Made by a program: the position numbers and the translations under genes
NCBI GenBank assembly: GCA_000739515.1
Contig: DF820455.1
Span: 1,304,712 to 1,368,711, forward strand
Direction: 5' to 3'
Length of the DNA stretch: 64,000 nt
Source: Candidatus Moduliflexus flocculans
GTDB taxonomy: Bacteria; Moduliflexota; Moduliflexia; Moduliflexales; Moduliflexaceae
Notes under the pieces: model-generated
What the model was told of the DNA's origin: nothing
Seen by the model: the letters and a program-made list of their open reading frames with translations, nothing else
Databases searched by the model: none
In this document: piece after piece, positions 23,881-44,019 of the stretch
Layout: the number at the start of each line of letters is the position of its first letter
Numbering within the stretch: position 1 is the stretch's first letter

Positions 23881-24957
23881 TTATTTCGAAACGGCATCAA
23901 TCACAGCTTTGGCAATTTCGCCTAACGGGAGGATTTTATCAACCGCGCCGCGTTTAATCGCTTCGTTCGGCATCCCGAACACGACGGATGTGGTTTCATC
24001 CTGGGCGATATTCATGGCCGCCCCGGCCTCTTTCATTTCCAACATGCCGCGCGCGCCGTCGTCGCCCATGCCGGTCATGATGACGCCGATTGCGTTTCGT
24101 CCGGCATAACGCGCGGCGGAGCGGAACAGCACATCCACTGAGGGGCGATGACGGCAGACGAGCGGGCCGTCGGTCACTTCGACGTAATATTTCGTGCCGC
24201 TGCGCCGAATCAGTGTGTGTTTGTTGCCCGGCGCAATCAGGGCGCGGCTTGGAATCACGGAATCGTTATTTTCCGCCTCCTTGACCGTGATTTTGCACAG
24301 GCCATCCAGCCGCTTGGCAAAGGCTTTGGTGAAGTGTTCGGGCATGTGCTGCACAATCACGATGCCAGGTGCATTCCAGGGCATGGCCTCTAAAAATTCC
24401 CGCAGCGCTTCCGTTCCGCCGGTTGACGCGCCGACCACGACAATCTTTTCAGTGGTTTGAATCATCGTGTTTCGCGTCGGCTTAGCAAGCACGACATCCG
24501 CTGTGAGTTTCGGCTCGACTTCACGGATTTTTATCACTTTTTTCGCGCGAGACTCCGCCGCCGCTTTCACAATATCGCAGATGCGGACGCTGTATTCTTC
24601 CAGGAACTCTTTGGTGCGCTCGCGCGGTTTTTGAATAATATCCACCGCGCCGTATTCCATCGCTTTGAGTGAGACTTCAGAACCTTCTTCTGACAATGCC
24701 GAGCAAATGACCACTGGAATCGGGTGTTCGCTCATGATTTTTTGTAAAAACGTCAATCCATCCATCCGGGGCATTTCGATGTCGAGCATCAACACATCCG
24801 GCATCTCTTTTTCCATTTTTTTCGCCGCAATCAGCGGATCGGGGGCGGTGGCGATAACCTCCACTTCCGGGTCTGTCGAGAGTACCGTTTTTAACGTCTG
24901 GCGCATCAATGCGGAATCGTCAACAATCACGACTTTTACAGGTGGTTTTTTTAGCAT
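23881..24957 (-). CDS. cheB: Chemotaxis response regulator protein-glutamate methylesterase CheB
   Basis: N-terminal REC ([11 protein letters not shown]...DIEMPRMDG) plus the methylesterase domain. Confidence 0.9.
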
Positions 24958-24989
24958 GCGTCACGTAACGCTGGGCGCAGAGAGCGAAC

Positions 24990-26390
24990 TTATGCTCCCC
25001 AGCCAGGTTCTGAAGCGGAGTTGATACGTTTCAATAAGACCTCGCCTGTTTGGGTATAAAATAAAATTTTTCGACCTAAATGTCCACCCACGTCAGAGAC
25101 GATTAATTCAAGATTATGCGCCTTGATCGCCTGCAACACCGCATCAATATTCGACTTGCCGACCGGCTGCATATTCGGATTGCCGGTTCTGACCGTCAAC
25201 ATATCTGCCCCGCCAAATAACTTCACTTCCAGGTCTTTCGGCTCAGAGCCATAGGTTTTCAGCCGTTGCAGCATCAGCGGGATGACCGTCTGCACGTATT
25301 TATAGGAGAGATTTTCAGTCGTGGCGGCGTGCTGATCCAGCGCCTCATTTCCTTGTGGCAGCAGCGCGTGACACATTGCGGCCACGCCGAGGCGCTTATC
25401 AAACATCGTCACTGCCATGCATGAGCCTAACACGGTGCGCACAATCGCCGGATGATCGCTGATATAGAGTTCAGCGGGTTTCAGCGTGATGACAGGGAGA
25501 TGCGGCGCAAGATGGGCGCTGACTTCTTTTTGATACACCGTATGCGCGACCGCCTTCAGCGGAACCGACAGGCCATTCAGCGTCTCCGAATGGCCGGTGA
25601 AGAGATAGCCGCCCGGACTTAAATGCTGGTAGAGCCGACTAATAACCTGTTCCTGAATGTCGCGGTTGAAATAGATAATCACATTGCGGCAGAAAATGAT
25701 GTCCATTGTTTCGCGAAATCCGAACTCGCCGCGCACCAAATTCACCGAACGGAAACGGACAAAAGCGCGAATTTCAGGGGAAATCCGCACCATGCTTTTT
25801 TCGCGTTCTTTGCTTTTTAACAGATAGCGCTTGCGGAATTCCACCGGGATCGGATCCGCGTTTTCTTCTTCATAAATGCCGAGTCGGGCTTTTTCCAGCA
25901 CTCGCGAAGAGACATCCGTCGCTAAAATCAGAAAATGGAATCCTGGATGTTGCAGGCTGAAATCGTGCAGCACCATCGCCAGACTATATGGCTCTTCGCC
26001 AGAAGAACAGCCGGCGCACCAAAACATGTACTGCCGGTCAGCGCCCTGTCGGCTGATAATTTCTGGAAGGACGCGCTCGATAAGATATTCGAAATGATTC
26101 GGCTCGCGAAAAAAATCGGTTTTGTTCGTTGTTACAACATCAATCATTTGTTGGAGTTCAAGCTCGCGGCCTTCTGGACTAAATACATAATTGTAATACT
26201 CGTCAAAGGATTCGATCTCCAACTTCCACAGCCGTTTTTGAAGCCGTGCTTGAAGCATGGTTTTTTTGGCAATCGGCATTTTGATGCCTAATTCCGCTTC
26301 GATAAATTCACTGAAGCGATAAAAAGACTCATCACTCATGCTTTCGACGTTCGTTCTACGCACACTCTCTTCATTCATAATCGTACTCAC
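24990..26390 (-). CDS. cheR: CheR methyltransferase fused to CheD chemoreceptor deamidase (CheR-CheD fusion)
   Basis: N-terminal CheR signature (TDFFREP, WCAGCSSGEEPYSLAM). C-terminal CheD signature (LGSCMAVTMFD...AAMCHALLP). Confidence 0.8.
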   Translation of the reverse strand: MSTIMNEESVRRTNVESMSDESFYRFSEFIEAELGIKMPIAKKTMLQARLQKRLWKLEIESFDEYYNYVFSPEGRELELQQMIDVVTTNKTDFFREPNHFEYLIERVLPEIISRQGADRQYMFWCAGCSSGEEPYSLAMVLHDFSLQHPGFHFLILATDVSSRVLEKARLGIYEEENADPIPVEFRKRYLLKSKEREKSMVRISPEIRAFVRFRSVNLVRGEFGFRETMDIIFCRNVIIYFNRDIQEQVISRLYQHLSPGGYLFTGHSETLNGLSVPLKAVAHTVYQKEVSAHLAPHLPVITLKPAELYISDHPAIVRTVLGSCMAVTMFDKRLGVAAMCHALLPQGNEALDQHAATTENLSYKYVQTVIPLMLQRLKTYGSEPKDLEVKLFGGADMLTVRTGNPNMQPVGKSNIDAVLQAIKAHNLELIVSDVGGHLGRKILFYTQTGEVLLKRINSASEPGWGA

Positions 26391-26438
26391 ATAATGTTCG
26401 ATTCATCGTTCATGAACCTTGACAGGTTATGGGCGTCA

Positions 26439-29105
26439 CTATCGCCGTCGTCCCTGTTTTTTGAGCAGCATGGCTTCAAGGGATTTCAAAACTTCTTCAC
26501 GATCAAGTTTGATCTGGTATTCATCAATGCCGACTTCGAACCCGCGCCGCCGGTCTTCTTCGCCACTGAGCGAGGTCAAGGCCATAACCGGCAAATGTTT
26601 CCATTCCGGCGTGGTTTTAATGATTTTCGTCAGTTCAAAGCCATTGCAATACGGCATATCCAAATCGGTGATGACCACATCCACATGATGCGCCGCGAGT
26701 TTTTCCTGCGCGTCGTTCCCATTAATCGCTGTAATGACGTGATAGCCAGCGGCTTCTAAATAGGATTTTTCGATATTCAGGAAAAACATCGAATCCTCGA
26801 CAATTAACACATCAAGCTTGCTGCGTTCTTCTTCGGTGATTTTGCTGACGAAAAACTTTTTATACCAGGTCGGATAGGCCAATTCGATTAATCCGTGAAT
26901 ATCAAGGATCATCACGGAATGCCCGTCAACAATTGTCGAGCCGAGAATCCCTTTCTGCTTGAACGTTTCTGTATCAATATGCGTATCAATTTCGATGGTG
27001 TTGACAATCTCGGATACGACCAGTCCAATCTGTTTTTCCACAGCAAATACAATGAGCGATAAGGTTTCCTGCGGTGGTGCGGCAGGAATATTGAAATATT
27101 GTTCCAGGCGAATGAGTGGCAAGATTTCATGCCGGTACTGCATGACTTCGCGTCCGCCGGAATATTCGATTTGCGATGCGGGAAACTCTTCCAGCCGCAC
27201 CACAAACGCTAACGGTACGCCATAATATTCATTATTCCCAACACGGAACAGCACAACCGTCTGCCGATGTTCGCGCATGTCAGTTTCACTGATGGCTTCA
27301 GCCTGTTCACCGCCCTGTTGATCGGCCTTTTTAATTTCATCCGATGACAACTGCACGGAACTGTACAATCCTGACGTGTTCAAAATCAACGAAATTCCGC
27401 CGTCTCCCATAATCGTTGCGCCATCGTAATAGGGGAGTTGCTTGATATGACTGCTTAAGGGTTTGACCACGATTTCTTCGGTATCTCCGACATCATCCAC
27501 CACTAAGCCAAAATGCAGTTCCCCAGCAGACAACACGACAATGTTGAGTAAATTATCCGTCGCGCCTTCAGGCTGAGGCAGCGCAAAAACGTCGCGCAAT
27601 CGAATAATTGGCAGGAGTTCGCCGCGCAGCCGATAGACTTCCGCGCCGTAAATGCGCTCGATAGTATGAGATTCGTCTGTGTCGGTCTGCAACATAATCA
27701 ACTCTTCCAGATTTACTTGCGGAATGGCAAACCGCTGTTTTCCGGCGGCGACAATCAGCACGGGAATAATGGCCAGCGTAATCGGCACGCGCAATTTCAT
27801 GGTCGTGCCTTTATGCAATTCGGTCTGCACATCAATCGTGCCGCCGATCCGGTCGAGATTGCGTTTCACAACGTCCATGCCCACGCCGCGCCCTGAAATC
27901 TTGGTAATCTGTTCGGCGGTTGAAAAACCTGGGCGGAAAATGAGCGTGATTAACTGCCGTTCTGTCATCTCTTCCGCTTGCTGCGGCGTCACCAAGCCTT
28001 GCTGAATCGCTTTTGCCTTGACGCGCTGCAAGTCAATCCCCGCGCCATCATCCGCGACTTCGATATGTACCAAACCGGCTTCATGAAACGCGCGAATCTG
28101 AATTTTCGCCGTCGGCGATTTTCCCAATCGTTCGCGGATATTCGGCGCTTCCACGCCATGATCAATTGAATTCCGCACCAAATGCGTCAGCGGGTCTTTA
28201 ATCGCTTCGATTAAGGTCTTGTCCAGTTCAGTCGCCTGTCCTTCCATCACAAGCTGCACGTTTTTCCCCTGCATCATCGAGAGATCACGCACTAAACGCG
28301 GGAACATGCCGAACACCTTTTTAATCGGCTGCATGCGTGTCTTCATGACCGTTTCCTGCAATTCAGTCACCACGACATTCATCCGTTGCGCAATATCGCG
28401 CAAATTCCGTTCCTCGCTTTTCGTGGAGAGCTGCATGACCTGATTGCGCGCAAGGACAAGTTCGGCGGTTAAATTCATTAATTGATCGAGCAAGGCGACA
28501 TCTACATGAATCCGGCTTTCTTCGACTGACGAGAGGGTGCGTTCGATGATTTCAGAGGCTGATTTGGTTGATATATCGCTGGCAACGGACATCGGGGATT
28601 CTTCCTGAATGCTCGATGCGTCCTGCGGTTTTAGCGGTTTCGCGATTTTAGAAAATGGCGCAGATTTTTCCGAGAGCGTTGCTTTGGCGGCTGTTCGATC
28701 TTCAGGAGCAGTGCGAATTTTTTCAGCGATAGATTTTAACGCTTTCAAGACGGGATCAACGTCATGTTCTCCTTCATGACCGGTTTTTTCAATCGTCAGC
28801 AAAATAGATTTAATTGTATCTACCGCGCTCAGCAGCACAGTCGTAATATCGGAATTCAGCCGTAGCGATCCTTCTCGCAGTTTGGAAAGCACGTCTTCGG
28901 CATAGTGTGACACTTGCTCTAACGTGACGAGACTCAGAAACCCCGCGCTCCCTTTGATGGTATGGATAATCCTGAAAATATCCGCCAATAAATCGGCATT
29001 CGACGGGTTTTGTTCAAGCGCGACAAATTCATGATCCAACCGCTCAAGATTTTCCTGCGATTCCATCACAAAGTCGCGAAGTACTCGATCTAATCCATCG
29101 TTCAT
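26439..29105 (-). CDS. cheA: Hybrid CheA histidine kinase: Hpt - dimerisation - HATPase - CheW-like (P5) - second CheW-like domain - C-terminal REC
   Basis: Hpt motif IIHTIKGSAGFL. HATPase motifs DDGAGID and GRGVGMD. Two CheW-like domains. Terminal REC (LIVEDS...TDLDMPYCNG). Confidence 0.85.
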   Translation of the reverse strand: MNDGLDRVLRDFVMESQENLERLDHEFVALEQNPSNADLLADIFRIIHTIKGSAGFLSLVTLEQVSHYAEDVLSKLREGSLRLNSDITTVLLSAVDTIKSILLTIEKTGHEGEHDVDPVLKALKSIAEKIRTAPEDRTAAKATLSEKSAPFSKIAKPLKPQDASSIQEESPMSVASDISTKSASEIIERTLSSVEESRIHVDVALLDQLMNLTAELVLARNQVMQLSTKSEERNLRDIAQRMNVVVTELQETVMKTRMQPIKKVFGMFPRLVRDLSMMQGKNVQLVMEGQATELDKTLIEAIKDPLTHLVRNSIDHGVEAPNIRERLGKSPTAKIQIRAFHEAGLVHIEVADDGAGIDLQRVKAKAIQQGLVTPQQAEEMTERQLITLIFRPGFSTAEQITKISGRGVGMDVVKRNLDRIGGTIDVQTELHKGTTMKLRVPITLAIIPVLIVAAGKQRFAIPQVNLEELIMLQTDTDESHTIERIYGAEVYRLRGELLPIIRLRDVFALPQPEGATDNLLNIVVLSAGELHFGLVVDDVGDTEEIVVKPLSSHIKQLPYYDGATIMGDGGISLILNTSGLYSSVQLSSDEIKKADQQGGEQAEAISETDMREHRQTVVLFRVGNNEYYGVPLAFVVRLEEFPASQIEYSGGREVMQYRHEILPLIRLEQYFNIPAAPPQETLSLIVFAVEKQIGLVVSEIVNTIEIDTHIDTETFKQKGILGSTIVDGHSVMILDIHGLIELAYPTWYKKFFVSKITEEERSKLDVLIVEDSMFFLNIEKSYLEAAGYHVITAINGNDAQEKLAAHHVDVVITDLDMPYCNGFELTKIIKTTPEWKHLPVMALTSLSGEEDRRRGFEVGIDEYQIKLDREEVLKSLEAMLLKKQGRRR

Positions 29106-29211
29106 GATGTTTTCTCCTCAATAAACGGCGATGAATGGGATACCATTTGCTTTTCTGAATTGGTATAGCGCATTCACAGCATTTTGTCAATGGATTGGCG
29201 CAAAAACATCG

Positions 29212-31392
29212 TTAATAGCGCTCGAAATCTTTATCATGTTCGTCTTCCGCGATGGAGGGCATCGCCGAAAAAAACGTCTCACGGTCACTTTTCAGGCGTG
29301 TATTCTTTTGGGAATCAGGCCGCGCGTCGGGCGAAATCCTGGATTTTGGCTGGCGCGGCGATGCGGCGTCTGGAATCGGCGCATCGAAAGACTCCATGGA
29401 TTCAGGGACATGGAAGAATCCGATAATCGTGCGAAGCTGTCCAGCTTGCGCCGCTAATTCTTCGGCGGTTGACGCGACTTCTTCCGACATCGCGGCGTTT
29501 TGCTGCACGATCTGATCTAATTGTTGGATGGCGCGGTTGATTTGTTCGGTTCCGGCGTTTTGTTCGCGGCTTGCCGCCGTAATTTCCTGCACAAGTTCGG
29601 AGGTTTTTTGAATATCCGGCACTAAGCGCGACAGCATATTCCCGGCTTGTTCTGCGATAGAGATGCTGTTGATGGCTAAATGATTGATTTCTTCTGACGC
29701 GGTTTGGCTTCGTTCCGCTAATGAGCGCACCTCTGCGGCGACGACCGCAAAGCCTTTGCCATGCTCTTGCGCTCGCGCGGCCTCAATCGTGGCATTGAGC
29801 GACAGAAGGCGCGTTTGGCGGGCAATGTCTTCGATAATGGAGACGCGCTTCGAAATCTCATGCATCGCAGACACCGTTTCCAGGACTGCCGCGCCGCTGG
29901 CGCGTGCGTCTTCAGCGGATTTGATTGCAAGTTTTTCGGTCTGGAGGGCATTTTCGGCATTTTGCCGGATATTCGCAGCCATTTGTTCAATGGAGGACGA
30001 GGCTTGTTCTGCGGCGGCGGCCTGCTGAGAGGCGCCTTGCGACATTGCTTGTGCGCTGGAACTCAAATTCTGGCTGCCACTTGCGACCTGAAATGCCGCT
30101 TTCTGGATGCTGATTGTCACGTCGCGTAATTTTTCAATCATCACATTGACCACCGTTTGAAATCGTCCGATTTCATCGGAGCGCGTCATGGCTATGCGGA
30201 CATCAAGGTTTCCTTCGGAAAGCTTCTCTGTCGCGGTAATCGCCTGTATAATCGGAATGCTCAGGTTTTTGGCTAAGAGAAAAATCGCCGCGAGCGCAAG
30301 CAACGCGCAGCCTGCGCTTATGCCGATTAAGACAAATGTTTTCTGCCTGCTTTCCTTGAGAAGCGCGTCTGCTTCGGCAGTAATGCGCGCGCGGGGGATA
30401 TTGATATTCACGATCCAGGGCGTTGCGCTCTGTCCGATATGAATAGGGGTAAACACTTCAAGCGCGTTCTCTAAGAGCATGACCGATTCTTCTTCGCTCT
30501 GAATGATGTTTAATAGATGGGTATGCTCGTCTTCGTGGGATTGAGCAGAATTGTTGGCTTGGTTCTCCGTGTGTTCGTGGCCGCCATGCAGCGTATCAAT
30601 CATCTGCCCAGCCAATTGCGGCTGATTTTTGGCCGCGACAATGGTGCCGTTATGGCTGAATAGGACAAACTGCGCTTCCCCTCCGTATAGATCAGGCAGC
30701 GTGTCAATCATGTGCTGCAATACCGCTAATCGCATATCCACGGTGATCACGCCGTAAAAATTGTCTTGAAATATAATCGGCGCGGTAAGGGTCGTCATGA
30801 AAATATTTTTCCCCTGCACAGGGTAAAGGTAGGGATCAATCACGCATTCGCGTTTCGTTTGTTTCGGGCAAAAGTAGTATTCTCCTTTGCCTTCGATGGC
30901 ATAATTTTCTAATGGAGCAAGCGTGATCGTGTCGTTTTCGCCACGCGACCAATATGGGATAAACCGTCCTGTTGCATCATGGCCAGGTTCATTGGCATAG
31001 CCGGAATCTAATTCGTCAAAGGCGTTTGGTTCCCAGGCGGTTCCGATGCCGACAAAATTATCATTTTCCGAGAGAACCGTTTTGAGCAGTCCATTGACCT
31101 GATCGCGATCAATTTGTAAGCCAATGTCAGGGTTTTTGATTCCTTGAAGACTCTGCGCTAATGTTCGCGCCGTATCCATCGCAGTTTCCATCTCGGCTTT
31201 GATGGCATTTGCATATTGTTGCGCTAACGTTCTGACGTAATTCTGAGTATCGCGAAGTGCTGTCTCTCTCTCAGAAAACGCCTGTTTCCGCATATCAACG
31301 ACAATATACGCGACAATCACAGTGGTCGTCAGAAGTAGGCACAACCCCATCCACGACGCAATTCTGACTTGAAGTCGTTTGTAGAATTTCAT
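29212..31392 (-). CDS. Methyl-accepting chemotaxis protein with a Cache-like periplasmic sensor and HAMP; C-terminus ...DFERY
   Basis: TM1, ~300-aa periplasmic domain, TM2, HAMP, then the MCP signalling domain (ARTLAQS...[13 protein letters not shown]). Confidence 0.85.
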
Positions 31393-31618: not shown

Positions 31619-31696
31619 CATTGAACGGGCCAAAACCTGTCAGACACCGTGAAGGTATCTGACAGGTCTGTTCAATCATCGTGCATAATGCTGTAT
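31619..31696. repeat. Repeat family 4, long form (CATTGAACGGG...CTGTCAGACACCGTGAAGGTATCTGACAG...CTGTTCAATCATCGTGCATAATGCTGTA)
   Basis: Homologous copies at 41336-41412 (same orientation) and about 46429-46512 (inverted). Confidence 0.6.
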
Positions 31697-31744
31697 GCCA
31701 CCGGCAGATATTGTCCATGAAAAAACACAACATTTTCATTTCGA

Positions 31745-32914
31745 TCATGACGCCGTTGATACCGTTGTGCGCTTGACCGAACGCGGCGGATAGGCTGGGC
31801 GCTCAAAGATAATGGCAACTTTTGTGCCTTGCGCGCTCTCGATGGTAATCTCTCCTTTTAATTGACGCACCAGCATTTTTACCAAGCGCAGCCCAAACGA
31901 GAGCGCCTGATGTTCTTCTGAAAGAATGTGCGGAAAACCGATCCCATTGTCTTTCACCTCTAATAATAACATCGCGGTGTCATACGTTTGCAACGCGATC
32001 TGAATTTCATTGGGCGGCTGGAGGGGCTGGCATTTCTGGGGAAAGGCATATTTCAAACTATTGGACATCAATTCGTTGATAATTAGCCCACATGAGATTG
32101 CTGTGTCCACATCGAGAGAAACAGGGGTGACATCAATCGCTAACGAAATGTTGGTTTTCCCATAGGATTGCAACAATGTATGCGCTAACTGCGTGATATA
32201 CGCATGCACGTCTAACTCGGCCAGGTTGCTGGATTGGTAGAGTTGTTCGTGAATATGCGCGATTGAGCGGATGCGGTTCTGCGCTTCTAAGAAAATATCA
32301 CGCGCCAGAGGGTCTTTAATATCTTCTGATTGCAAATCCAATAAACTGGAAATGACTTGTAAATTGTTTTTGACGCGATGGTGGAGTTCTCGAAGCAAGA
32401 CTTCCTTTTCTTTGAGCGATGCCTGAAGTTCTTCCTGGGTTCGCGTTCGCTCATAAATTTCATTTTTCAATTCTTGCGTCCGCTGTGCCACCAGTTCTTC
32501 AAGGCGTTCGCGGTGCTTTTGGAGTTCCAACTCATTCTGTTTGCGCTGAATAGCATTTTCAACGGTCAACGCCAATGTTTTTAAATAATTGCCTTCCTGA
32601 TCTTTGATCAAATAGTCATATGCCCCGGCTTTCATGGCTTTGACAGCGATCTCTTCGTTGCCGATGCCGGTGACAAGAATAATGGGAATGCCTGCCAAAT
32701 CATCAAAGAGATCGAAGGCCACGCCGTCTCCTAACACATAATCCACGACAGCGGCATCAACAGGCGTCGTTCGGAGCAGTTGGCGCGTCTGTTCGACTGA
32801 GCCGGCAATGACGTATTCATAGGGAAAATGTTCGCGCCTGGCAAACCGCTCGAACGCCATCTGGTCAACTTTGTCATCTTCAACAAACACAATCTTGTAA
32901 GGAGCGCATTCCAT
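31745..32914 (-). CDS. Hybrid histidine kinase: N-terminal REC, HisKA_2-type phosphoacceptor (HHRVKNNLQ) and HATPase
   Basis: REC motif IVFVEDDKVD. The HHRVKNNLQVISSLL H-box. C-terminal ATPase G-boxes. Confidence 0.8.
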   Translation of the reverse strand: MECAPYKIVFVEDDKVDQMAFERFARREHFPYEYVIAGSVEQTRQLLRTTPVDAAVVDYVLGDGVAFDLFDDLAGIPIILVTGIGNEEIAVKAMKAGAYDYLIKDQEGNYLKTLALTVENAIQRKQNELELQKHRERLEELVAQRTQELKNEIYERTRTQEELQASLKEKEVLLRELHHRVKNNLQVISSLLDLQSEDIKDPLARDIFLEAQNRIRSIAHIHEQLYQSSNLAELDVHAYITQLAHTLLQSYGKTNISLAIDVTPVSLDVDTAISCGLIINELMSNSLKYAFPQKCQPLQPPNEIQIALQTYDTAMLLLEVKDNGIGFPHILSEEHQALSFGLRLVKMLVRQLKGEITIESAQGTKVAIIFERPAYPPRSVKRTTVSTAS

Positions 32915-32917
32915 AAC

Positions 32918-33367
32918 TTATTCCTCGTCAGGCATCTCACTCAACGTCCAATAGAGATTGATCGTGCGAACGACTTCAACAAACTGCTGATAATCAACAG
33001 GTTTGATCATGTATCCGGCGACGCCTAAATCAAAGCTTTCAAACTTGTCCTGATCGTTTTTAGAAGCAGTTAGCACGACGACTGGAACTTTTTTTAACGA
33101 GGGGTCTTTTTTAATAATCTGGAGGAGTTCCAGACCATTCATTTTCGGCATATTCAGGTCTAACAGGATGATACAGGGGCGTTCTGTATTCGGCTGGTGT
33201 AAAAACTGCAATGCCTCTTCCCCGTTACCCGCCACAAACACGTCATTCGTGACGTGAATCTCCCGCAGCGACCGCTTCACAGTCATCGCATCCACTTTAT
33301 CATCTTCAACCAATAAAATAGGCTTTTTGCTATTCATCATCATAGCTCCTTCACATTGCATTGCCAA
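32918..33367 (-). CDS. Single-domain CheY-like response regulator
   Basis: 149 aa, REC only (ILLVEDDKVD...DLNMPKMNG). Confidence 0.85.
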   Translation of the reverse strand: MAMQCEGAMMMNSKKPILLVEDDKVDAMTVKRSLREIHVTNDVFVAGNGEEALQFLHQPNTERPCIILLDLNMPKMNGLELLQIIKKDPSLKKVPVVVLTASKNDQDKFESFDLGVAGYMIKPVDYQQFVEVVRTINLYWTLSEMPDEE

Positions 33368-33858: not shown

Positions 33859-35112
33859 TCATGAAGATTTGGGCAGAGTGAAAAAAAATTTGCTCCCCTG
33901 ATTCAGTTCGGACTCTACCCAGATAGTCCCACCATAAAGCGTAATAATCTTTTTCACAATTGCAAGCCCTAATCCAATCTGTTTATCGTTGTCATGGGTA
34001 TGCAGTGTTTGAAATAGGTGAAAAATTTTGTCGTGATATTCCGCAGGAATCCCTGCGCCGTTATCAGCCACTTCAAACTGCCAAAATCCTCCATGATCGC
34101 GACAGGCAATTGTCACCTGTCCTTGAGGGCGTCCCATAAATAAAATTGCGTTATCTATCAGGTTGCCAAACAGGGCTGACAGGTGTTCTTTCTTGCCAGA
34201 GATGACAGGGAGAGGGGTCAGGATACAACACACGATCGTCTCTGGCGGCATGAGATTTTCGAATATCTGCGGAATCAGGGCGTTCAGATCAATCGGCTTG
34301 ACTTTCTCTGGCTGCCGGACAATGCTGATGTATTCCGCGATGCCATCAAGCAGACTATTCATCCGTTTGACGCGCTGAACCAACCAGGAGAGCATTTCCT
34401 GGGCGCGCGCATCAAAGAGATGGCTATAATCATCTTTCAGCCATTGCGCCAATTGCCCGATCCCGCGCAGCGGCGTTTTCAAATCGTGCGAAACCGTCGA
34501 GATGACATTTCGAAGATCATCATTGGCCGCTTCTAATTCTGCCGTGCGTTCTCGCACACGCTGTTCGAGGCGCGCATTCATCTGGCGCACGGCCTCTTCG
34601 GCTTCTTGTCGCTGGCGAATTTCTTGCTGCAAGATTGAATTCTGTTTCTGGAGCGAGCGTTGCAGCCGACTCAGTTTTAAATGCGTGTGTACCCGCAGCA
34701 ACACTTCATCGGCCTGAAACGGTTTGGTAATGTAATCTACGCCACCGATTTGGAAGGCGTAAGCTTTGTCCTGAATATCATCTTTCGCGCTGATAAAAAT
34801 AATTGGGATATCACGAGTCCGCGCGTCATTTTTGAGTTGACGGCAAATCTCATAGCCGGAAATTTCTGGCATCATAATATCCAGCAATATCAAATCCGGC
34901 GGCTGCGTCTGTGCGCTGACGAGAGCTAAGTGTCCATGAGAAACCGGTCGCACCACATGCTGTTGGGATTTCAATATCTCCATCAACATGCGAAGATTGG
35001 CCGGAATATCATCAACGATCATGATCGCGCCGACCAATCTTTCCTGAGGGGCTGTTGCATCAACATGATTCATATCCGGGTTTGTCTTGATGATCGCGCA
35101 GACATTTGACAC
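33859..35112 (-). CDS. Hybrid histidine kinase: REC - coiled coil - HisKA - HATPase
   Basis: REC (IMIVDDIPANLRM...DIMMPEISG). H-box VSHDLKTPL. G-box GLGLAIVKKI. Confidence 0.8.
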   Translation of the reverse strand: MSNVCAIIKTNPDMNHVDATAPQERLVGAIMIVDDIPANLRMLMEILKSQQHVVRPVSHGHLALVSAQTQPPDLILLDIMMPEISGYEICRQLKNDARTRDIPIIFISAKDDIQDKAYAFQIGGVDYITKPFQADEVLLRVHTHLKLSRLQRSLQKQNSILQQEIRQRQEAEEAVRQMNARLEQRVRERTAELEAANDDLRNVISTVSHDLKTPLRGIGQLAQWLKDDYSHLFDARAQEMLSWLVQRVKRMNSLLDGIAEYISIVRQPEKVKPIDLNALIPQIFENLMPPETIVCCILTPLPVISGKKEHLSALFGNLIDNAILFMGRPQGQVTIACRDHGGFWQFEVADNGAGIPAEYHDKIFHLFQTLHTHDNDKQIGLGLAIVKKIITLYGGTIWVESELNQGSKFFFTLPKSS

Positions 35113-35145: not shown

Positions 35146-37161
35146 TCAGCGATTCAGCAATTTATGGATAATTCCATCCAATTTGCGCAAATTGACAGGT
35201 TTGCTCATATACTCGTTCGCGCCAGCCTCGATGCACCGTTCGCGGTCTCCAGGCATGGCAAGAGCGGTCAACGCGATAATCGCAGGGGACATGTCCGGCA
35301 GGGCGCGAATATGCTGAATCGCTTCGAGGCCCCCCATGACCGGCATCTGAATATCCATCAGAATGGCCGCAGGTCGCATCTGAATCGTTTGTTCAAGCGC
35401 CTCTTTCCCATCTTTTGCGATAGCGACGGCATAGCCTTTCAATTTGAGATACTCAGCTAACATCTCCGCATTGGTTTCATGATCGTCGGCGACAAGAATC
35501 ATCGGCGCGGTCGTCGAATTGTTCGGAGCGCTATCGTTGGCAATCCCCGGCGAGATCGTTGATTCTTCCTGAATCTGCTCTTGATGCTGAACAAGCGACG
35601 CATTGTGGACGGGCAAAGAAACCGTAAACCGGCTTCCTTTGCCGACAGTGCTTGTCACGCTGATATGCCCGCCATGCATTTCTACCATTCGGGAAACCAA
35701 CGACAGCCCTAACCCCGTTCCCGGGTGTCGGCGAGTAAATGTGCCATCTAACTGAACAAATGGCTGAAATAAGCGCTGAATATCTTCGGGCGAGATGCCA
35801 ATGCCGGTATCCCAGACAGTAAAATGCACCTGGTGATCATGTTCCGAACGGACATCGAGGCCGACCTGTCCGCCTTCTGGCGTAAATTTCACCGCATTGC
35901 TCAGCAGATTGACGAAAATTTGTTTGAGACGCCGTTCATCGGCATCAAGCGTTGGCATTGCGGCCTGAAAATCAAATGAAATGGCAATCCGTTTTTTGCT
36001 CGCCTCTTGTTTGATAAAGCGTAAACTTGCCTGACAGACGTTCTCGATATTGACCGGGGAGATCAGCAGTTCTAACTTCCCTGCGCCAATTTTGGCTAAA
36101 TCCAAAATATCGCGAATAATCGCAAGCAAATGGCGGCCACTTTCATCAATGCTGTTCAATGCATCCCGCTGTTTCTGCGTTAATGCGCCGAAAATCTCTT
36201 CTTGCAATGCCTCGGTCATGCCCAGAATTGTATGGAGCGGCGTGCGAAATTCATGGCTCATCGTGGCGAGAAATTCATCCTTCATTCGGGCAGCGCGGGC
36301 AAGTTCGGCATTGGCTTGCTGGAGTTCGGCGGTACGTTCTTCGACACGCCGGGTTAGCGATTCGCGTTCTTGCTGCAACGCTAATTCGCTTTCTTTTCGT
36401 TCGGTAATATCCTGAACCAGGCCATCGTAAGAGATCAGCACGCCTTGTTTATCGTGATGCAGCACTGACGTATTTCTTACCCAGCGCACTGCGCCGTCTT
36501 TTCGAATAATCCGATGCTCGTATGGCTCGACATTCTGCCCCTCCATCAGGCGCTCTGTGCGTTCGATCACCATCTGGCAATCCGCGTCATAGACCATTTG
36601 AATCCAAAGATGCGGATTTTTTCGAAATTCTTCTTGCGTATATCCTGTCACTGCGATACAAGTCGCGCTATGTTCTGTTGATTCTGCGCGGCCATCTTGC
36701 ACGCGCACCGTATAAATGTAATCCGTCACCGCTGCAATTAACCGACGGTAGCGCTCCTCGCTATCTTTCAACATCCGCTCCAATTGATGCCGATAAATCG
36801 CCATTTCGATGCAACTGTGTAATTCCCTGGTCTGAAATGGTTTAATCAGATAGCCAAACGGCTCAGCCAATTTCGCGCGTTGAAGTGTTTTTTCATCGGC
36901 ATAGGCGGTGAGATAGATGACCGGGACATCATACAGCAAGTGAAGATGTTTCGCGGCGTCAATGCCATCGATCTTTCCCTCAAGTTCAATATCCATCAAC
37001 ACCACATCCACCTGATATTTAAGCGCTTTTTGAATGGCTTGCTCGCCCGTGCTGACGACATCCGCAATCGCATACCCCAATCGCTCTAATTTGGTTCTGA
37101 TATTTTCAGCGACGATCACTTCGTCTTCCACAATAAGAATACTGGTCTGCGTTTGCGCCAT
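35146..37161 (-). CDS. Hybrid sensor histidine kinase: REC - PAS - HisKA - HATPase - REC
   Basis: N-terminal REC (ILIVEDEVIV...DIELEGKIDG). H-box MSHEFRTPL. ATPase motifs. C-terminal REC (ILVADDHETN...DIQMPVMGG). Confidence 0.8.
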   Translation of the reverse strand: MAQTQTSILIVEDEVIVAENIRTKLERLGYAIADVVSTGEQAIQKALKYQVDVVLMDIELEGKIDGIDAAKHLHLLYDVPVIYLTAYADEKTLQRAKLAEPFGYLIKPFQTRELHSCIEMAIYRHQLERMLKDSEERYRRLIAAVTDYIYTVRVQDGRAESTEHSATCIAVTGYTQEEFRKNPHLWIQMVYDADCQMVIERTERLMEGQNVEPYEHRIIRKDGAVRWVRNTSVLHHDKQGVLISYDGLVQDITERKESELALQQERESLTRRVEERTAELQQANAELARAARMKDEFLATMSHEFRTPLHTILGMTEALQEEIFGALTQKQRDALNSIDESGRHLLAIIRDILDLAKIGAGKLELLISPVNIENVCQASLRFIKQEASKKRIAISFDFQAAMPTLDADERRLKQIFVNLLSNAVKFTPEGGQVGLDVRSEHDHQVHFTVWDTGIGISPEDIQRLFQPFVQLDGTFTRRHPGTGLGLSLVSRMVEMHGGHISVTSTVGKGSRFTVSLPVHNASLVQHQEQIQEESTISPGIANDSAPNNSTTAPMILVADDHETNAEMLAEYLKLKGYAVAIAKDGKEALEQTIQMRPAAILMDIQMPVMGGLEAIQHIRALPDMSPAIIALTALAMPGDRERCIEAGANEYMSKPVNLRKLDGIIHKLLNR

Positions 37162-37354: not shown

Positions 37355-40300
37355 TTAATATCGCTCGAATTCCTCGTCCCGCTCATCGCCGAGCGCGAAA
37401 GGATGCCGCACAGGAATCGGCGTGTCTGCCGCGCCATTTTCAGCCCGGCTGACAGCGCGGACGATTTTTTTCGCCGCCGCCTCTTCCCGGCGTCTCTCTT
37501 TAACAGGCAAGGCGTCGTTCTCCCGTTTTCGAGGAAGATTGGAGAGGCTTTTTTCGTCTTCATATCCGATATTAAAAAAACTCATGGTGACTTGTAATTG
37601 TTCGGCTTGACTGGCCAATTCTTCCGAGGTGGACGCCACTTCTTCGGCAGTCGCCGCATTTTGCTGAATCACTTGATCCAACTGCTGAATAGCCCGATTG
37701 ATCTGTCCCGCGCCGGAATCTTGTTCTTTGCTGGCTGCGCTGATTTCCTGGACAAGTTCGGCGGTTTTTTGAATGTCCGGCACGAGGCGGGCGAGCATTT
37801 CTCCGGCATATTTCGCGATTTTGACGCTGGCGTTCGCGAGATTATTGATGTCTTCCGCGGCGGCCTGGCTGCGTTCCGCTAACGAGCGCACTTCCGCCGC
37901 CACCACCGCAAAGCCTTTGCCTTGTTCCGCCGCCTTGGCCGCCTCAATCGTAGCATTCAGCGACAACAGGCGCGTCTGGCGGGCAATATCTTCAATAATC
38001 GCAATCCGCTTCGCAATGTCTTGCATGGCAGCCACCGTATCCGCAACGGCTTTGCCGCTTTCCTGCGCGTCTGCTGCCGATTTTAACGCGATCTTGTCTG
38101 TCTGCGTGGCATTTTCCGCATTCTGACGAATATTGGCAGCCATTTCTTCCATAGATGACGACGCTTCTTCTGCCGCTGCCGCCTGTTCGGTCGTGCCTTG
38201 CGAAAGCTGCTGCGCGCTGGAACTCAATTGCTGGCTGCCGCCAGAAACGTAATTCGCCGCAAATTTGACGCTGGTCACGACATCGCGCAGTTTCCTGACC
38301 ATCGCGCCGAGCGCTCGCATCAAGCCATCGCGCTCTGAACGCGCCTCAACCTGAATCGTTAAATTCCCATTCGCCAATTCCTCGGCCATGTGCGTGATGT
38401 CCGCCATCACTTGAATCAGCACATTCAGGTTCGTTTTGATCTCGTTGAAGTCACCGAAGTAAGTCTCCTGGATTGGTTCTGGCAGGTCGCCTTTCGAGAT
38501 GCGATCCACATACGTCGCCGCGACATTTAATGGGGTAATGATCGCGTCGAGCGTGTTGTTGACGCCTTCGACGATTCGTGCAAAATCGCCGCTGAACCGC
38601 CCGACTTCGCCGCGCGTGGCAAGCTGCCCTTGCGTTGCCGCATTCGTCAGGCGGATTGCCTCCGCAACTAAGCCGTTGATGGCATCAATGCATTGATTCA
38701 GATTATTTTTAATGTCGTTAAAATCGCCGTGATACATTTCGGTGATTTTGTCTGGAATATCCCCTTTCGAAATGCGATTCACATACGCTGCCGTCAGTTG
38801 AATCGGCTTGACAAACGCATCAATCAACAGGTTAATCCCTTCAACCGTGTCGCGCCAGCCGCCGGAGAATTTAGCGAGATTGCTCCGCATCGTCAGATTT
38901 CCCTGCCGCGTTGCGTTAATCAATTCATTCGTTTCCTGGAGAATTTGATGAATGCATTGGATCATCAGGTTCAACGAACGCATCAACGTGTCATGTTCGG
39001 AACACTCGCGCGCTTCAATCTTGAGGTTGCCGCTGGCAATGGATTCAGCAATCCGCGTGGTCTCATTGGTCGCATCAATCAGGAGATTCAGATTATTGAT
39101 CATCGTCACGAAATCCCCTTGATAGGCTGAAGTGATTTTCTCTGGAATATCTCCTTTCGCAATACGATCCAGATGGGCAGCGGTAAGCGCGAAGGGTTGC
39201 GTAAACGCGTCAATTACGTTATTCACGCCGCCGATCATCTCGCACCAGCCGCCAACAAATTGACTGGCATTGCCTCGCATGGCAAGCTGCCCGGTCTGAA
39301 TGGCTTGCGTTAAGACTCCCATTTCCTTCAGCACGGCGCGGATCGTGCTTTGCATGTCGCGAAATGCTTGCGCGAGGCTGCCGATTTCATCGCTGCGGAT
39401 CAGGCGAATCTCTTTGCGGGTTTCGCCTGCCGCCAGCTCGTTCGCCAGGCCAACGATCTGCGTTAGCGGCTTCGTGATCGAGCGGCTGAAAATGCTGAAT
39501 CCCACGATCACCATCAATGCTGCGGCAATGAATGTGACCAGGCCAGTGCGCGTGGCGAATGGGATTCTTGCGGCGACGGCGGCCTGCATCTGCTGCTGTT
39601 CTTCTCGGATCGAATTTTCGAGCACATTGAGGCTCTGGCGGATCGGATCGCTATACCCATCTAATTCATCATCAATATTCACAAATTCCGCATTGATTTG
39701 CGCGGCGGCGACGGCGCTTTCTTGAATCAACCGCGCCAACGTCTCTTGCACTCCTGTGGCGAGCTTCGGAAACGTCTCGCGAATCATTCGAGCCGCCTCT
39801 TTTTCATTCTCTGTCTCAACGAATCCATCCAGTTGAGCGACGGCCAGGCGCATCGTCTGAATAGCATTCTGAATCGTTTTCAGGCGTTCCTCCTGGATGC
39901 GGCCTTCATCTTTGTCTATAATCGAATCCATCGAGGCTAACATGAGTTTAGCATGAAATTCTGCAAACGTGCTCAACAGATTGACCTGTTCACTGCGGCG
40001 CAGCAATTCCTGCGAGGCGTTGCTCACCTTCTTTTCAACCGATGTCATCAGTATCTCGAATTGTGTTTGAATCTGTTTTCCGAGATCGCCCAACGCGCCA
40101 TTTAGCGCGGCAAACGCTGCGTCATTCTGCGCGCCAGACGCCGCGCTTTCCTGAAGCAGTTTGACCAAATCGGTTAAAATGCCCTTCTCCAATTGCGGCA
40201 GCAGCGTTCTGATTTGATTGACTGACGCCTGTTCCTCGCTCGTATCCGCAAGCGCATCCAGTTGGGAGAACCGAGTTTGAATGAATTGCAAGCTGCTGGA

Positions 40301-40990
40301 AATCTGGTGCAGGCGCTGCTCGCTGATTTTGCCGGATTGTCGATCAATCATGGACTGTATGGCCTCTAACATGAGCAGATGATGCATTTGCAGACATTCT
40401 CGCAAAAAGCGAGCGTGTTGATTGAATGTTGCGGCAATATTGGCGGCAGTCTCCTGTTTTTCATGCAACGACGAGCGCAACGTAGTGATCGCCGCGTCAA
40501 TTTGAGCGCCATCCTGATCGAGTTCGTTATCAATTTGTTCGAAAGCTTTTGTAATATCCTGAAGTTGCGCCGCGCTCTGTTCGATCAAGCGCACCAAACG
40601 CTCTTGAATGCCAACTTGTAATTTGGGAAAGATATCCTCAGCTTTTTGAAAGGCGATTTTTTCCTCATCGGTATCAACAATTGCGCCCAACTCCTGAAAC
40701 CGCTGCTTCAATGCGGCGATATTTTCGGTGATGACTTTCATGCGCTCATCGCGAATGCGGCCTTCGTCTTTATCAATGACGGAATCCATTGCCGCCAATA
40801 CCAGATCAACCAGCAGCGTCCGCGCTTGAATGGCGCGCTCTAATTGGCGCTCGCGTTCAGCCATTGCCTCATTCGTCTGCCTGATGAGTTGGTTTGTTCG
40901 AAATGAAATCCCGCCCATTGCGCCTAAAATGATGATAATCATCATGCCCATAATCAACATTTTTTTGCCAATCGTCCATCTCATGTTCAT
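37355..40990 (-). CDS. Giant methyl-accepting chemotaxis protein (1211 aa): triple-repeat helical periplasmic sensor, poly-HAMP array, MCP signalling domain; C-terminus ...EEFERY
   Basis: Two TM segments bracket a ~450-aa periplasmic region holding three ~115-aa repeats. Cytoplasmic HAMP follows, then three ~78-aa HAMP-like repeats ([12 protein letters not shown]...YxGDF) and two more HAMP-like units. Confidence 0.8.
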
Positions 40991-41287
40991 TCCTCCTCAT
41001 GTTCGTTTTTCAGGGTTATCACGTGTCATGAATCGCGTTCAAACTCATCGTCACGCTCATTTCCGTTCCCATGAGACGAGGCGCGATGTACGGTTTTTTT
41101 CAAAAATGATCGCATTGTTCATTGCGATTGAACAAGAGCGCAAAAGCCATTGAATGATGCTGTATGTACCATTTATTGCACTTCGAGCGCATGTCAAGAA
41201 TCTTTTTTGCGGGGATTCGGAGAGAGGGATCGCGAGCAGCGCGCAATCCCAACGATGACACGGGATCATTCGTTTTTATGAATATGT

Positions 41288-41440
41288 CGTACCGCCGACG
41301 TCCTCGTCGGCCTCTCTTACAGCATTATTCACTTGCATTGAACGGGACGAAACCTGTCAGACACCTTGAAGGTGTCTGACAGGTCTGTTTAATCATCACG
41401 CTTAATGCTGTACAGCGCCGACGAGGACGTCGGCGGTACG
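41288..41440. repeat. Nested repeat: family-3 palindrome arms (41288-41311 and 41417-41440) with a family-4 element (41336-41412) in the loop
   Basis: Outer 24-bp arms CGTACCGCCGACGTCCTCGTCGGC / GCCGACGAGGACGTCGGCGGTACG. The inner core is the ACCTGTCAGACACCTTGAAGGTGTCTGACAGGT palindrome. Confidence 0.6.
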
Positions 41441-41556
41441 AAATGCCATTAAAATCTCATGAAACAGTGCGCTGTTCTAAGGAAAGGCTGGACGGGTTCT
41501 AAAAATCTGAGCGACGTTTATCGAACGGGAAAACGGCGATGTTAGGCACGCATTTT

Positions 41557-44019
41557 TCAGAATCGCTCGAATTGATCGTCGTACTCGTCTGGTTCTGTCA
41601 GGTCGCTAACGCTGCGCTGAGACGGGCGTCCCCAGCTCTTCTCTCTTTGCGAGGCAACAATTTTTTTCATCATTTTGTCTGAGGGGTGCGGCCTCTCTTC
41701 AGGCTGTTCTGGCAGATCGCCATCCCAATGCTCGTCATTGACTTTGAAATAGTTCATCGCAATTTGTAGTTGGCGCGCCTGACCGGTCAACTGTTCCGCC
41801 ATAGAAGCCATTTCTTCGGCAGTCGCAGTATTTTGTTGAATGACATGATCCAATTGCTGAATCGCGTTATTAATTTGCGCGGATCCGGAGCTTTGTTCGC
41901 TGGTGGCCGCAGTGATTTCCATCACCAACTCAGATGTTTTTCGAATATCGGGAACAAGCTGCGCTAACATCTCACCCGCCACGCTGGAGACGGCAAGGCT
42001 GGATCGCGTCAATTCGTTGATTTCTTCCGCCGCGTCGTGACTGCGCTGCGCTAATGCACGCACTTCAGCAGCGACAACAGCAAAGCCCCTGCCGTGTTCC
42101 TGCGCTCTGGCCGCTTCGATTGTGGCGTTCAACGATAACAGCCGGGTTTCCTGCGCGATTTCCTCGATAATCGTAATTTTTTTGGCGATTTGCTGCATCG
42201 CCTGAACGGTCTGCGCCACGGCTTCTCCGCTCTTCTGCGCATCCGCCGCAGATTTCATCGCGATTTTTTCCGTCTGTATCGCGTTGTCCGCGCTTTGCCT
42301 GATGTTCGACGCCATTTGCTCCATTGATGCGGAAGCCTGCTCAGCGGCAGCGGATTGCTGACTTGCGCCATCCGCCACTTCCTGTGCGCTGAGGTTCATT
42401 TGCATGCTTCCATCCGCGACATTTCGCGCGGCGGCTTTGACACTGATCACAATTTCATGCAGTCGTTTCACCATCGCGTTCAACGCGATCATTAAGCGAT
42501 CATGTTCGCTGCGCTCCCGCACATCCACCGTCAAATTTCCGGCAGCGATCTCTTCCGCCATGCCAACAACATCGGTCAACGCCGCGATCATGCGATTCAG
42601 CGCACTCATGAGTCGATCCTGCTCAGAACGTTCTTTCGCCGCAACCGTCAGATTTCCGTTTGCAATCTGTTCGGCAATTGCCGAGATGTCATTCATGGCG
42701 TCAATCAGCCCGTTGACATGCTCCTGAATCTCGTTGAAATCACCAGCATACTGATGCGTGAGCCGTTCGGGAATATCGCCTCTGGCAATTCGTTTCAGGC
42801 TCTCCGCTGTCACTTGAAACGGATCCATAAACGCATCAATCATTCCATTCATCCCGACAATCAAATCCCGCCAACACCCTTGAAATTTCGCGGCGCTTCC
42901 TCGCTCATGCAGCGTTCCGGCCTGAATTGTGCGAGTCAGGCGTTCAGTTTCTCGCAGGGCTTCTTGAATGCGACTTTTCATCCCTCCCAATGCAATTGCG
43001 AGTTCGCCGATTTCGTCGCTTCGACGGACATTTAATTCGGCTTGAATATCGCCGCTCGCAATCGCTTTGGCAAACGCGACGCCTCTCACCAATGGCCGTG
43101 TTAAGTTTTTCGCCACCAGCCAGATAACGAGCGAAACGCCGCCAATCATCGCCAGGGTCAGCGCGAACACCGTCTGGCGAAGATGAGCCACCGGGCTGAA
43201 CATATCGTTCATGTCCGCGCCGACTGCCACTGTCCAACCCGTTAATGGAACTTGCGATAGATAGACCTGTTTAGGATTCCCTTTCCAGACATAGGTGAAC
43301 AAGCCTTCGTGAGCCGCCAGCAAATCCTGTCCAAATTCGAAATCGGTGATTTTCTGGTCTAAAATTCGCTCTTTTTCAGGGTGGGAAATAAATGTTCCAT
43401 CCTTTTCCAGCATATACGCATAGCCTTTTTCACCGATGTGAATCGGAGCAATAAATTTATCGGTGACGGAATTTAAGCTGATGGAGACCAAAAAAACGCC
43501 GATGACACGTTCCTCCGACAACACTGGCGCAGAACACGCAAGCACAGGCTCGCCAGTCGTCCGGCTGCGAATTACCGACGAGATCGCGACTTTCCCCGCC
43601 AGGCTTTCCTGGAAATACGCGCGGTCATCATACCGGGCGGTTCCGACATTTTCCGCTGTCGAAGACGCAAGCGTCATGCCGTCAAGATTGACGATATTCG
43701 CTACCACATATTGATAGCGCTCTTTCAGTCTTTTCAACGCCAGATTCGCGGTTTGAATCCCTTGCCAGTCATTTGGATTTTTCAGTACATTGACGGTGAT
43801 ATTCCGCTCGCTTTGCTGTAGGACATCGAGCTGTAGGTTGCGCAGCCATTCTTCGATTTGCCCGGCAAGCCGTTCACTGGCCTGCTCCATTTCGCGCGTA
43901 ATTTCTGTCTGTAACGCCGATCTGGCCGACGTGTACGCCACAAACATAATCACGCCCGCCCCGATAATGATCGTGCTGAGTGTCGGGATAAAAAATCGGT
44001 TAAATACATTCCATCGCAT
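41557..44019 (-). CDS. Methyl-accepting chemotaxis protein with a dCache-like sensor, multiple HAMP-like repeats and the MCP signalling domain; C-terminus ...DQFERF
   Basis: TM1, ~280-aa periplasmic domain, TM2, HAMP, one 78-aa repeat, two HAMP-like units, then the signalling domain ([13 protein letters not shown]). Confidence 0.85.

Follow-up and report, generated by a model that had tools for sequence, protein, structure and literature searches.

A chemosensory gene cluster with an F5-type CheA and three receiver-bearing kinases in Candidatus Moduliflexus flocculans

The window analysed here, a 64-kb stretch (64,000 nucleotides) of contig DF820455.1 of Candidatus Moduliflexus flocculans, a member of the phylum Moduliflexota (KSB3), carries ten consecutive genes on its minus strand, from position 44019 down to 23881 (~20 kb; open reading frame (ORF) map and Pfam domain searches). 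In order of transcription, they encode two methyl-accepting chemotaxis proteins (MCP_C and MCP_B), two histidine kinases with receiver (REC) domains (HK3 and HK2), a single REC domain forming a stand-alone response regulator (RR), a third receiver-kinase (HK1), a third receptor (MCP_A), a CheA kinase, a CheR-CheD fusion, and CheB. This locus is real and conserved, and is best seen as a variant of the design in which CheA gates a second kinase, built in this case with an F5-type CheA and F8-type receptors in a flagella-less phylum. We assign a probability of about one half to the reading that it specifies a non-flagellar chemosensory pathway whose CheA would control receiver-gated kinases in the style of the CheA3-CheS3 pair of Rhodospirillum centenum.

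In the Che3 system of R. centenum, CheA3, which carries a receiver (CheA-REC), phosphorylates the first receiver of the kinase CheS3 (REC-REC-PAS-HWE kinase) and thereby shuts CheS3 down; only phosphorylated CheS3 phosphorylates CheY3, and the receiver of CheA3 serves as a phosphate sink (He et al. 2013, PMC3868531). This gives experimental precedent to the original prediction that chemoreceptor input is fed into other kinases. Both clusters contain a CheA with a C-terminal receiver, a soluble HWE/HisKA_2 kinase with an N-terminal receiver, a single-domain regulator, an MCP, CheB, and CheR, and in neither is the output encoded. The characteristic gene set (CheA-REC, REC-HWE/HisKA_2 kinase, and single RR within one che cluster) is thus present in the window, and it is kept in relatives, HK1 being CheS3-like in kinase type when the two are compared by domain make-up. 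There are also differences: R. centenum Che3 has one receiver-kinase instead of three, two cheW genes instead of none, and a CheA3 described as a plain CheA-CheY hybrid whereas the CheA of the window has two CheW-like domains, to which are added here a CheR-CheD fusion, three MCPs, and a different phylum.

That the kinases are kept beside the che genes was examined in seven loci from related genomes (percentages in brackets are identities to the proteins of the window). L001 (CheA 90%) has the gene order of the window, as does L007 (CheA 87%) except for an additional PAS kinase with an HK2-like core before RR. L011 (CheA 80%) encodes HK3-RR-HK1-CheA and lacks HK2, and L003 (CheA 72%) carries an extra PAS-kinase/RR pair followed by HK2-RR-HK1-CheA-CheRD-CheB (CheRD being the CheR-CheD fusion), an arrangement shared by L020 (CheA 73%), where MCP_C-like and HK3 genes lie further upstream. 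In L023, HK1 (58%) is followed by a CheA cut by the contig end, and L021 (CheA 65%) shows the order HK1 (55%)-x-MCP-CheA-CheW-CheRD-CheB. HK1 therefore stands by CheA in 7/7 loci while HK1 identity falls from 88% to 55% and that of CheA from 90% to 57%, and wherever we examined the neighbourhood of an HK1 homologue of at least 55% identity, CheA was found on the same strand and at most 3.5 kb downstream. The predicted association of kinases and che genes holds within this clade. As a background control we used a metagenome scan by HK1 alignment, which found no close orthologues, only relatives of 35–53% identity; among the 80 loci (778 kb) surrounding these, only 3 contained a che-type gene. 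One of the three, from an unrelated lineage (L027, positions 1-6741 of metagenome contig SDBS01017877.1), encodes CheW-CheC/CheX-Hpt-REC_HisKA_2-REC_PAS_HisKA_2-REC_PAS_HD-GYP, and its HD-GYP domain makes cyclic di-GMP a possible output.

Conservation extends to other members of the block. A single REC gene directly precedes HK1 in five of the loci (L001, L007, L011, L003, and L020), L023 has one of 69% identity ~3.3 kb upstream of HK1, and beside the HK1 of L021 we found none. HK3 has orthologues in L001 (84%), L007 (81%), L011 (81%), and L020 (61%), and HK2 in L001, L007, L003, and L020. CheB is 83–97% identical across the orthologous loci, a gene resembling MCP_C (52–57% identity) is found upstream of CheA or HK3 in L004, L018, and L020, and the MCP_B orthologue of L001 measures 1209 aa. 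We also sought conserved output genes flanking the cluster, but the neighbours differ in every relative, in agreement with the prediction that the output is not encoded at the locus.

The single-domain regulator had been called a CheY, which is a misnomer. Its best matches in the Protein Data Bank (PDB) are phytochrome response regulators (5IC5 with 1e-29, 5BRJ, RcpA/RcpB, and Rcp1 with 1e-24), against ~1e-11 for true CheY proteins, and it is consequently a phytochrome-type (Rcp1-like) single-domain regulator. As in the Cph1-Rcp1 and bacteriophytochrome-response regulator pairs, whose solved regulators are its closest relatives, it directly follows a kinase gene, although HK2 has no phytochrome, GAF, or PAS module and only a receiver in their place; its H-box (SHDLKTPL) is one that we take to be Cph1-like. 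A triplet composed of a HisKA kinase with an HK2-like core, a 139-aa RR, and a REC-HisKA_2 kinase also occurs under other sensors, and in L025 it stands beside MCP-CheW only. Kinases that share the HK2 core and have PAS/GAF inputs precede the same RR in L022, L023, L025, and L007. These comparisons indicate that the triplet is a portable module, whose input domain in the window is a receiver. The joint duplication of kinase-RR pairs in L003 and L020 suggests that HK2-type kinases are the cognate phosphodonors of RR, and the spacing between RR and HK1 (3 bp here, overlapping in L020) suggests translational coupling of these two genes. Given that a receiver is the only input domain of HK1 and of HK2, both need an upstream kinase.

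In the mechanism that we propose, the receptors and CheA would form one array, and phosphorylated CheA, with no motor-type CheY to serve, would phosphorylate the N-terminal receivers of HK1, HK2, and HK3. By analogy with R. centenum, phosphorylation of these receivers would turn the kinases up or down, and the kinases would then determine, by phosphotransfer from HK2 and HK1, how far the adjacent Rcp1-type RR is phosphorylated. HK2 is the likely cognate kinase of RR, and HK1, which seems translationally coupled to RR, may serve as a further kinase, or else as a phosphatase or phosphotransferase. The receiver of CheA is probably a phosphate sink, and CheB would close the adaptation loop. RR might target a behaviour in sugar gradients, by gliding or by type IV pili, or else a programme of growth or aggregation. 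The multistep phosphorelay of the original prediction is possible.

Several observations weigh against this model. Gene adjacency does not prove wiring, and HK1 lacks both the PAS domain and the second, degenerate receiver of CheS3. HK3, which has a PAS domain, could be the upstream kinase of HK1 and HK2 instead of CheA. The orthologous loci of Vecturithrix (CheA 67%), in the order MCP_C-CheA-CheRD-CheB, work without the kinases. This comparison also speaks for the model, since it shows that the kinase block entered the che gene string, between the MCP gene and cheA, in the Moduliflexus branch, and the block has remained there. In L022, there are no che genes around the triplet, which stands behind a PAS/GAF kinase of 1478 aa and has an RR 69% identical to that of the window, so that the cassette can work alone. 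Three gaps of 350–570 bp suggest that several transcription units are likely, and a scan of the locus for promoter and terminator consensus sequences gave the same result as shuffled sequence, leaving no operon map. Finally, the absence of flagella concerns two published KSB3 genomes and not the genome of this organism.

Part of this evidence would fit an alternative in which the kinase block is an independent two-component module lodged within the che cluster, CheA signalling only to its own receiver, CheB, and a CheY/PatA-like regulator encoded elsewhere, while HK3, with its PAS domain, or an unlinked kinase runs HK1, HK2, and RR. The cassette without che genes in L022, the Vecturithrix cluster without cassette, the long intergenic gaps, the absence of HK2 from L011, and the phytochrome-type rather than CheY-type nature of RR all speak for it. 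We nevertheless regard it as rather unlikely, given the position of HK1 by CheA, within the che string and in the same orientation, in all seven loci against 3/80 in the background, the receiver as sole input of HK1 and HK2, and the recurrence of REC-HisKA_2 kinases with che genes in the unrelated lineages of L027, L025, and R. centenum Che3. We judge improbable a second alternative, in which the signal flows in reverse and the kinases phosphorylate the receiver of CheA, CheB, or, via the C-terminal receiver of HK3, the Hpt domain of CheA, tuning adaptation or kinase output. The P1 domain of CheA is the sole Hpt domain of the locus, the C-terminal receiver of HK3 is of the type that normally passes phosphate to an Hpt domain, HK3 has a PAS sensor, and reverse or internal REC-to-Hpt transfer has been described for ChpA (Vass et al. 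2022). Against this, HK1 and HK2 are sensorless and hence not primary inputs, and the direction tested in R. centenum is from CheA to the kinase. We know of no precedent for an external histidine kinase feeding a CheA receiver.

The CheA-CheW-CheW-REC architecture of CheA had been considered typical of alternative cellular function (ACF) pathways (FrzE/WspE-like). However, in a survey of CheW-like domains, a CheA with two such domains and a receiver is CheA.V, assigned to the flagellar class F5 and exemplified by the CheA of Azorhizobium caulinodans and the CheA1 of Azospirillum brasilense and R. centenum; the second CheW-like domain of CheA.V belongs to a divergent 'Class 5' that differs from P5 as well as from CheW proteins (Vass et al. 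2022). It is CheA.III/IV, with one CheW-like domain and a receiver, that go with ACF/F3. The CheA of the window has no detectable P2 domain, its P5 CheW-like domain spans aa 449–583, and its second CheW-like domain (W2), which reaches 5.5e-20 and 71.8 bits when scanned alone (cut-off of Pfam CheW, 23.5), is among the best-conserved parts of the protein in 34 homologues. According to Pfam, it thus shows the architecture of CheA.V and carries two CheW-like domains where CheA.III/IV have one, in an Hpt-dim-HATPase-CheW-CheW-REC order identical to that of the F5-type kinases (A. brasilense/lipoferum Che1 CheA1, R. centenum CheA1, and A. caulinodans CheA).

Similarity to F5-type kinases was judged within a collection of 72,556 plasmids and chromids, where the best matches of CheA were Azospirillum CheA proteins (identity of 41% across 92% of the length); within this collection, it is thus closest to alphaproteobacterial CheA1. 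With Azospirillum CheA1 it aligns collinearly: P5 aligns with P5 (4e-24) and W2 with the second CheW domain (1e-20), as opposed to 0.017 for W2 against the P5 of Azospirillum CheA1, and W2 has weak similarity to stand-alone CheW proteins. The published architecture and this domain-by-domain alignment place the protein in the CheA.V family, not among FrzE/WspE-like kinases, and rule out an ACF assignment based on CheA architecture. The locus resembles Wsp and Frz (WspE, FrzE) in having a CheA fused to a receiver, a probably non-flagellar role, and an output other than a motor-binding CheY, but typical of ACF clusters are CheR-TPR fusions (PMC3447774) and separate CheW genes, whereas CheR is here fused to CheD. 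A hybrid kinase on a Ralstonia chromid, which may be Wsp-like, matched at 29% against the 41% of the F5-type CheA1.

The named homologues of CheA belong to candidate division KSB3 and Ca. Vecturithrix. A scan of species-representative genomes found orthologues of 87–91% identity in metagenome-assembled genomes (MAGs) of uncultured Ca. Moduliflexus sp., each Moduliflexus MAG having three CheA paralogues of the same architecture (~87, 65, and 53% identity). More distant homologues (45%) occur in Thermodesulfatator, in a cheY-B-R-A...W cluster.

The lack of a stand-alone CheW was borne out: apart from the two domains of CheA, neither tblastn nor a hidden Markov model (HMM) search of all six-frame ORF fragments found any CheW in the 64-kb window, the intergenic gaps of the locus contain no ORF suited to encode one, and no cheW gene occurs at the orthologous loci examined (the window, L001, L007, L011, L003, L020, L004/L008, and L018). 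By contrast, the paralogous CheA.V clusters of the same MAGs have cheW directly after cheA (L009, L010, L012, and L015), and so does L021. CheW may be borrowed in trans. Since these CheA.V paralogues keep a CheW, W2 is no obvious substitute for it. The idea that W2 is a CheW fused recently in place of the missing gene was weakened, stand-alone CheWs being more distant from W2 than are P5 and the second domain of CheA1. In a group of paralogous clusters of Moduliflexota (L009, L010, L012, L005/L013, and L014), a CheA.V of 62–65% identity precedes CheW and a tandem pair of CheB genes, whose products are 26–28% and 36–38% identical to the CheB of the window; in Vecturithrix an MCP also follows CheW, and no CheR was seen in these clusters.

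The non-flagellar role rests on the lineage, reported to be flagella-less and gliding, and not on the architecture of CheA. In the founding genome paper on KSB3, flagellar genes are reported as absent and the type IV pilus set as incomplete; gliding is described solely in gradients of glucose or maltose, and the MCPs number over 60, alongside numerous Che proteins (PMC4312070). In the window itself we found no pilus, flagellar, or gliding gene. Of the claim of an ACF rather than flagellar system, the second half stands on the flagella-less lineage, and the first, drawn from architecture, loses its support with the assignment of CheA.V to F5. The best-matching CheA of Azospirillum lipoferum heads a cheA-cheW-cheY-cheB-cheR operon near fliI and fliJ, which we take to be Che1. 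Azospirillum Che1 lies beside flagellar genes and has no extra kinases, while the window has no CheW or motor-type CheY and possesses a CheD and 34H receptors in a flagella-less lineage; moreover, its CheB and CheR are only 31–33% identical to the Azospirillum Che1 proteins. F5 clusters contain cheW and cheY and control flagella, and the window contains no CheW, no CheY-type RR, and no flagellar gene. The F8 cluster II of Pseudomonas syringae (PMC11253619) shares with the window a cluster-encoded 34H receptor with a C-terminal pentapeptide, and in the CheR of the window the beta-subdomain loop is of the longer form that goes with pentapeptide binding; on the other hand, F8 blocs are associated with a simple CheA (CheA.I) and a CheW, instead of CheA.V and no CheW, and the pentapeptide of the window is xFERY/F instead of the W...F type. 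With a CheA of F5 type and MCPs of F8 type, no single published class fits.

These same class assignments are among the arguments for ordinary flagellar chemotaxis, F5- or F8-like, in which the kinases would be irrelevant neighbours. CheA.V is assigned to F5, the chromid protein that matches best is the Che1 CheA of Azospirillum, encoded close to fliI and fliJ, 34H receptors with pentapeptides are assigned to F8, and the 45% homologues of Thermodesulfatator sit in a cheY-bearing cluster. Yet the published KSB3 genomes lack flagellar genes and the organisms glide, the window has no CheW, motor-type CheY, or flagellar gene, and the mixture of F5 (CheA) and F8 (MCP) features matches no single class; the domain searches did not reveal an ordinary F-class flagellar system, and we consider this explanation very improbable.

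E. coli Tsr is a 36H receptor. Aligned with it, each of the three MCPs lacks one stretch of seven residues in either arm, the two deletions lying symmetrically around the hairpin tip, and all three are therefore 34H receptors. Their tips are near-identical, and the methylation-site consensus is retained. The 34H type is a minor receptor class assigned to F8 (PMC11253619), and the heptad classification that had been suggested thus links all three receptors of the cluster to F8, a class that CheA does not share. After the tip, the three proteins continue for ~180–190 residues, compared with 134 in tail-less relatives, and end in QFERF (MCP_C), EFERY (MCP_B), and DFERY (MCP_A), pentapeptides that conform to xZxxZ (Z = F, W, or Y). 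The xFERY/F ending is also found in orthologous MCPs and one set of paralogous Moduliflexus MCPs; the tail-less MCPs of a further paralogous cluster lack it. Its agreement with the xZxxZ pattern suggests that it is a tether for CheR/CheB. The beta-subdomain loop of CheR has the length of that of Salmonella, 3 residues more than in the pentapeptide-independent CheR1 of P. aeruginosa, although it has not kept the glycines found in the Salmonella loop. In MCP_B, residues ~30–480 form a region of ~450 aa without confident Pfam family, in which three ~140-residue helical repeats can be recognised by eye, with motifs such as a 17-residue stretch followed by ...FPKLxxGxQExLxxLIQESA; this periplasmic domain may be a triple four-helix-bundle sensor.

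The CheR and CheD parts of the fusion match PDB entries 1AF7 (7e-45) and 2F9Z_C (7e-16), respectively. We had considered the fusion as a possible novelty, but it is not rare: of the 150 best-matching clusters at 50% identity, at least 35 are as long as the fusion, and CheR_N, CheR, and CheD were found together in all ten fusion-length clusters scanned, one of them from Ca. Eisenbacteria. A literature search on 'CheR-CheD' returned irrelevant matches only.

To our knowledge, a CheA-to-kinase route has been demonstrated only in R. centenum, and the coupling of chemosensory arrays to non-motor outputs is known for only a handful of systems. If the proposed model is true, Ca. Moduliflexus would provide a second, independently assembled case, in another phylum, with another CheA lineage and three gated kinases. 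The model is testable in terms of the receiver chosen by CheA, the role of the second CheW-like domain, and the steering of uncultured bulking filaments in sugar gradients. A more ambitious version, in which the chemoreceptor array would be the master input to all three receiver-gated kinases (a 'kinase hub'), free of CheW thanks to the tandem CheW-like domains of CheA, and would set the phytochrome-type RR for filament gliding or sludge-bulking overgrowth, is tentative and, in our opinion, doubtful. In practical terms the interest is limited: filaments of KSB3 are a cause of failure of anaerobic reactors, which their sensing is presumed to set off.

Pfam reproduced every domain call of the original prediction (Table 1), which names the parts but not the order in which they lie, including the three hybrid kinases and single REC among the MCP genes (precisely, between MCP_B and MCP_A). 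The locus is a complete set of chemosensory genes on one strand, its adaptation branch (CheR-CheD and CheB) being intact. All seven REC domains of the locus keep the residues D12/13, D57, T/S87, and K109. The P1 histidine of CheA and the H-box histidines of the three kinases are present in the translations, and in HK3 His303 and both acceptor aspartates are intact. CheB possesses the serine of GASTGG, the histidine, and the aspartate, and the S-adenosylmethionine (SAM) motif of CheR and the GSC cysteine and histidine of CheD can be read in the fusion. Hydropathy predicts two transmembrane (TM) helices in each MCP and three soluble kinases. The start of RR is probably Met9 or Met10, giving 140–141 aa and matching its orthologues.

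Table 1. Coordinates of the chemosensory locus and of other features of the 64-kb window.
Feature	Position	Strand	Description
MCP_C	41557..44019	-	820 aa; two TM helices, periplasmic dCache_1, HAMP, HAMP_2, 34H signalling domain, C-terminal QFERF
MCP_B	37355..40990	-	1211 aa; two TM helices, ~450-aa periplasmic helical domain, HAMP and 3 HAMP_2, 34H, C-terminal EFERY
HK3	35146..37161	-	671 aa, soluble; REC-PAS_3-HisKA-HATPase-REC
HK2	33859..35112	-	417 aa, soluble; REC, coiled coil, HisKA (motif SHDLKTPL), HATPase
RR (single-domain regulator)	32918..33343	-	~141 aa; ORF extends to 33367
HK1	31745..32914	-	389 aa, soluble; REC, coiled coil, HisKA_2 5e-28 (weak HWE_HK 1e-5), HATPase (Pfam)
MCP_A	29212..31392	-	726 aa; two TM helices, PDC/dCache sensor, HAMP, 34H, C-terminal DFERY
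CheA	26439..29105	-	888 aa; Hpt (His48), dimerisation (H-kinase_dim), HATPase_c, P5, second CheW-like domain, REC (Asp814)
W2 (second CheW-like domain of CheA)	26883..27257	-	aa 617-741; Pfam CheW
CheR-CheD fusion	24990..26390	-	466 aa; CheR_N, CheR 5e-58 (aa 23-283), CheD 5.5e-25 (aa ~300-458)
CheB	23881..24957	-	358 aa; REC and CheB_methylest 5e-65 (Pfam)
REP/MITE-like palindrome	18315-18345, 31636-31666, 41353-41383, 46459-46489, 46800-46830		5 copies
Sugar-use genes	3191-22644		dense flank of the che locus
Sensor phosphatase	12290-14656	+	membrane protein; dCache-HAMP-PAS-SpoIIE (PP2C)
MVP-like protein	60063-62609	-	848 aa

The intergenic gaps measure, in transcription order, 566, 193, 33, ~515, 3, 352, 106, 48, and 32 bp. 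The gap between HK1 and MCP_A (352 bp) is 122 bp in L001, and a remnant of the extra PAS kinase of L007 was sought in the 515-bp gap between HK2 and RR and not found. The window contains five copies, all intergenic, of a palindromic repeat (core CCTGTCAGACACCTT-N-AAGGTGTCTGACAGG) resembling repetitive extragenic palindromes (REP) or miniature inverted-repeat transposable elements (MITE), with 10 half-site matches observed against 0.03 expected. The resemblance between copies reaches ~40 bp on either flank, the copy at 41353 is nested in a second, outer inverted repeat, and two copies lie in long gaps of the che locus (MCP_C-MCP_B, 566 bp, and HK1-MCP_A, 352 bp).

Elsewhere in the window lie genes for sugar hydrolases, ABC transporters, and housekeeping proteins. 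The sugar-use genes that flank the che locus comprise GHL6, an apiosidase-like protein, GH31, LacI, and three solute-binding proteins with their permeases. This flank fits the response to glucose and maltose reported for gliding KSB3 filaments, and it is kept only in the closest relative. Between two of the sugar ABC transporter loci lies the gene for the sensor phosphatase, which is presumably of the input-protein type of partner-switching cascades. The MVP-like protein, for which a PDB sequence search gave no match, is a bacterial protein with the shoulder domain of the eukaryote-type Major Vault Protein (PF11978, 2e-27), together with a Vault_3 repeat and an SPFH/Band 7 domain.

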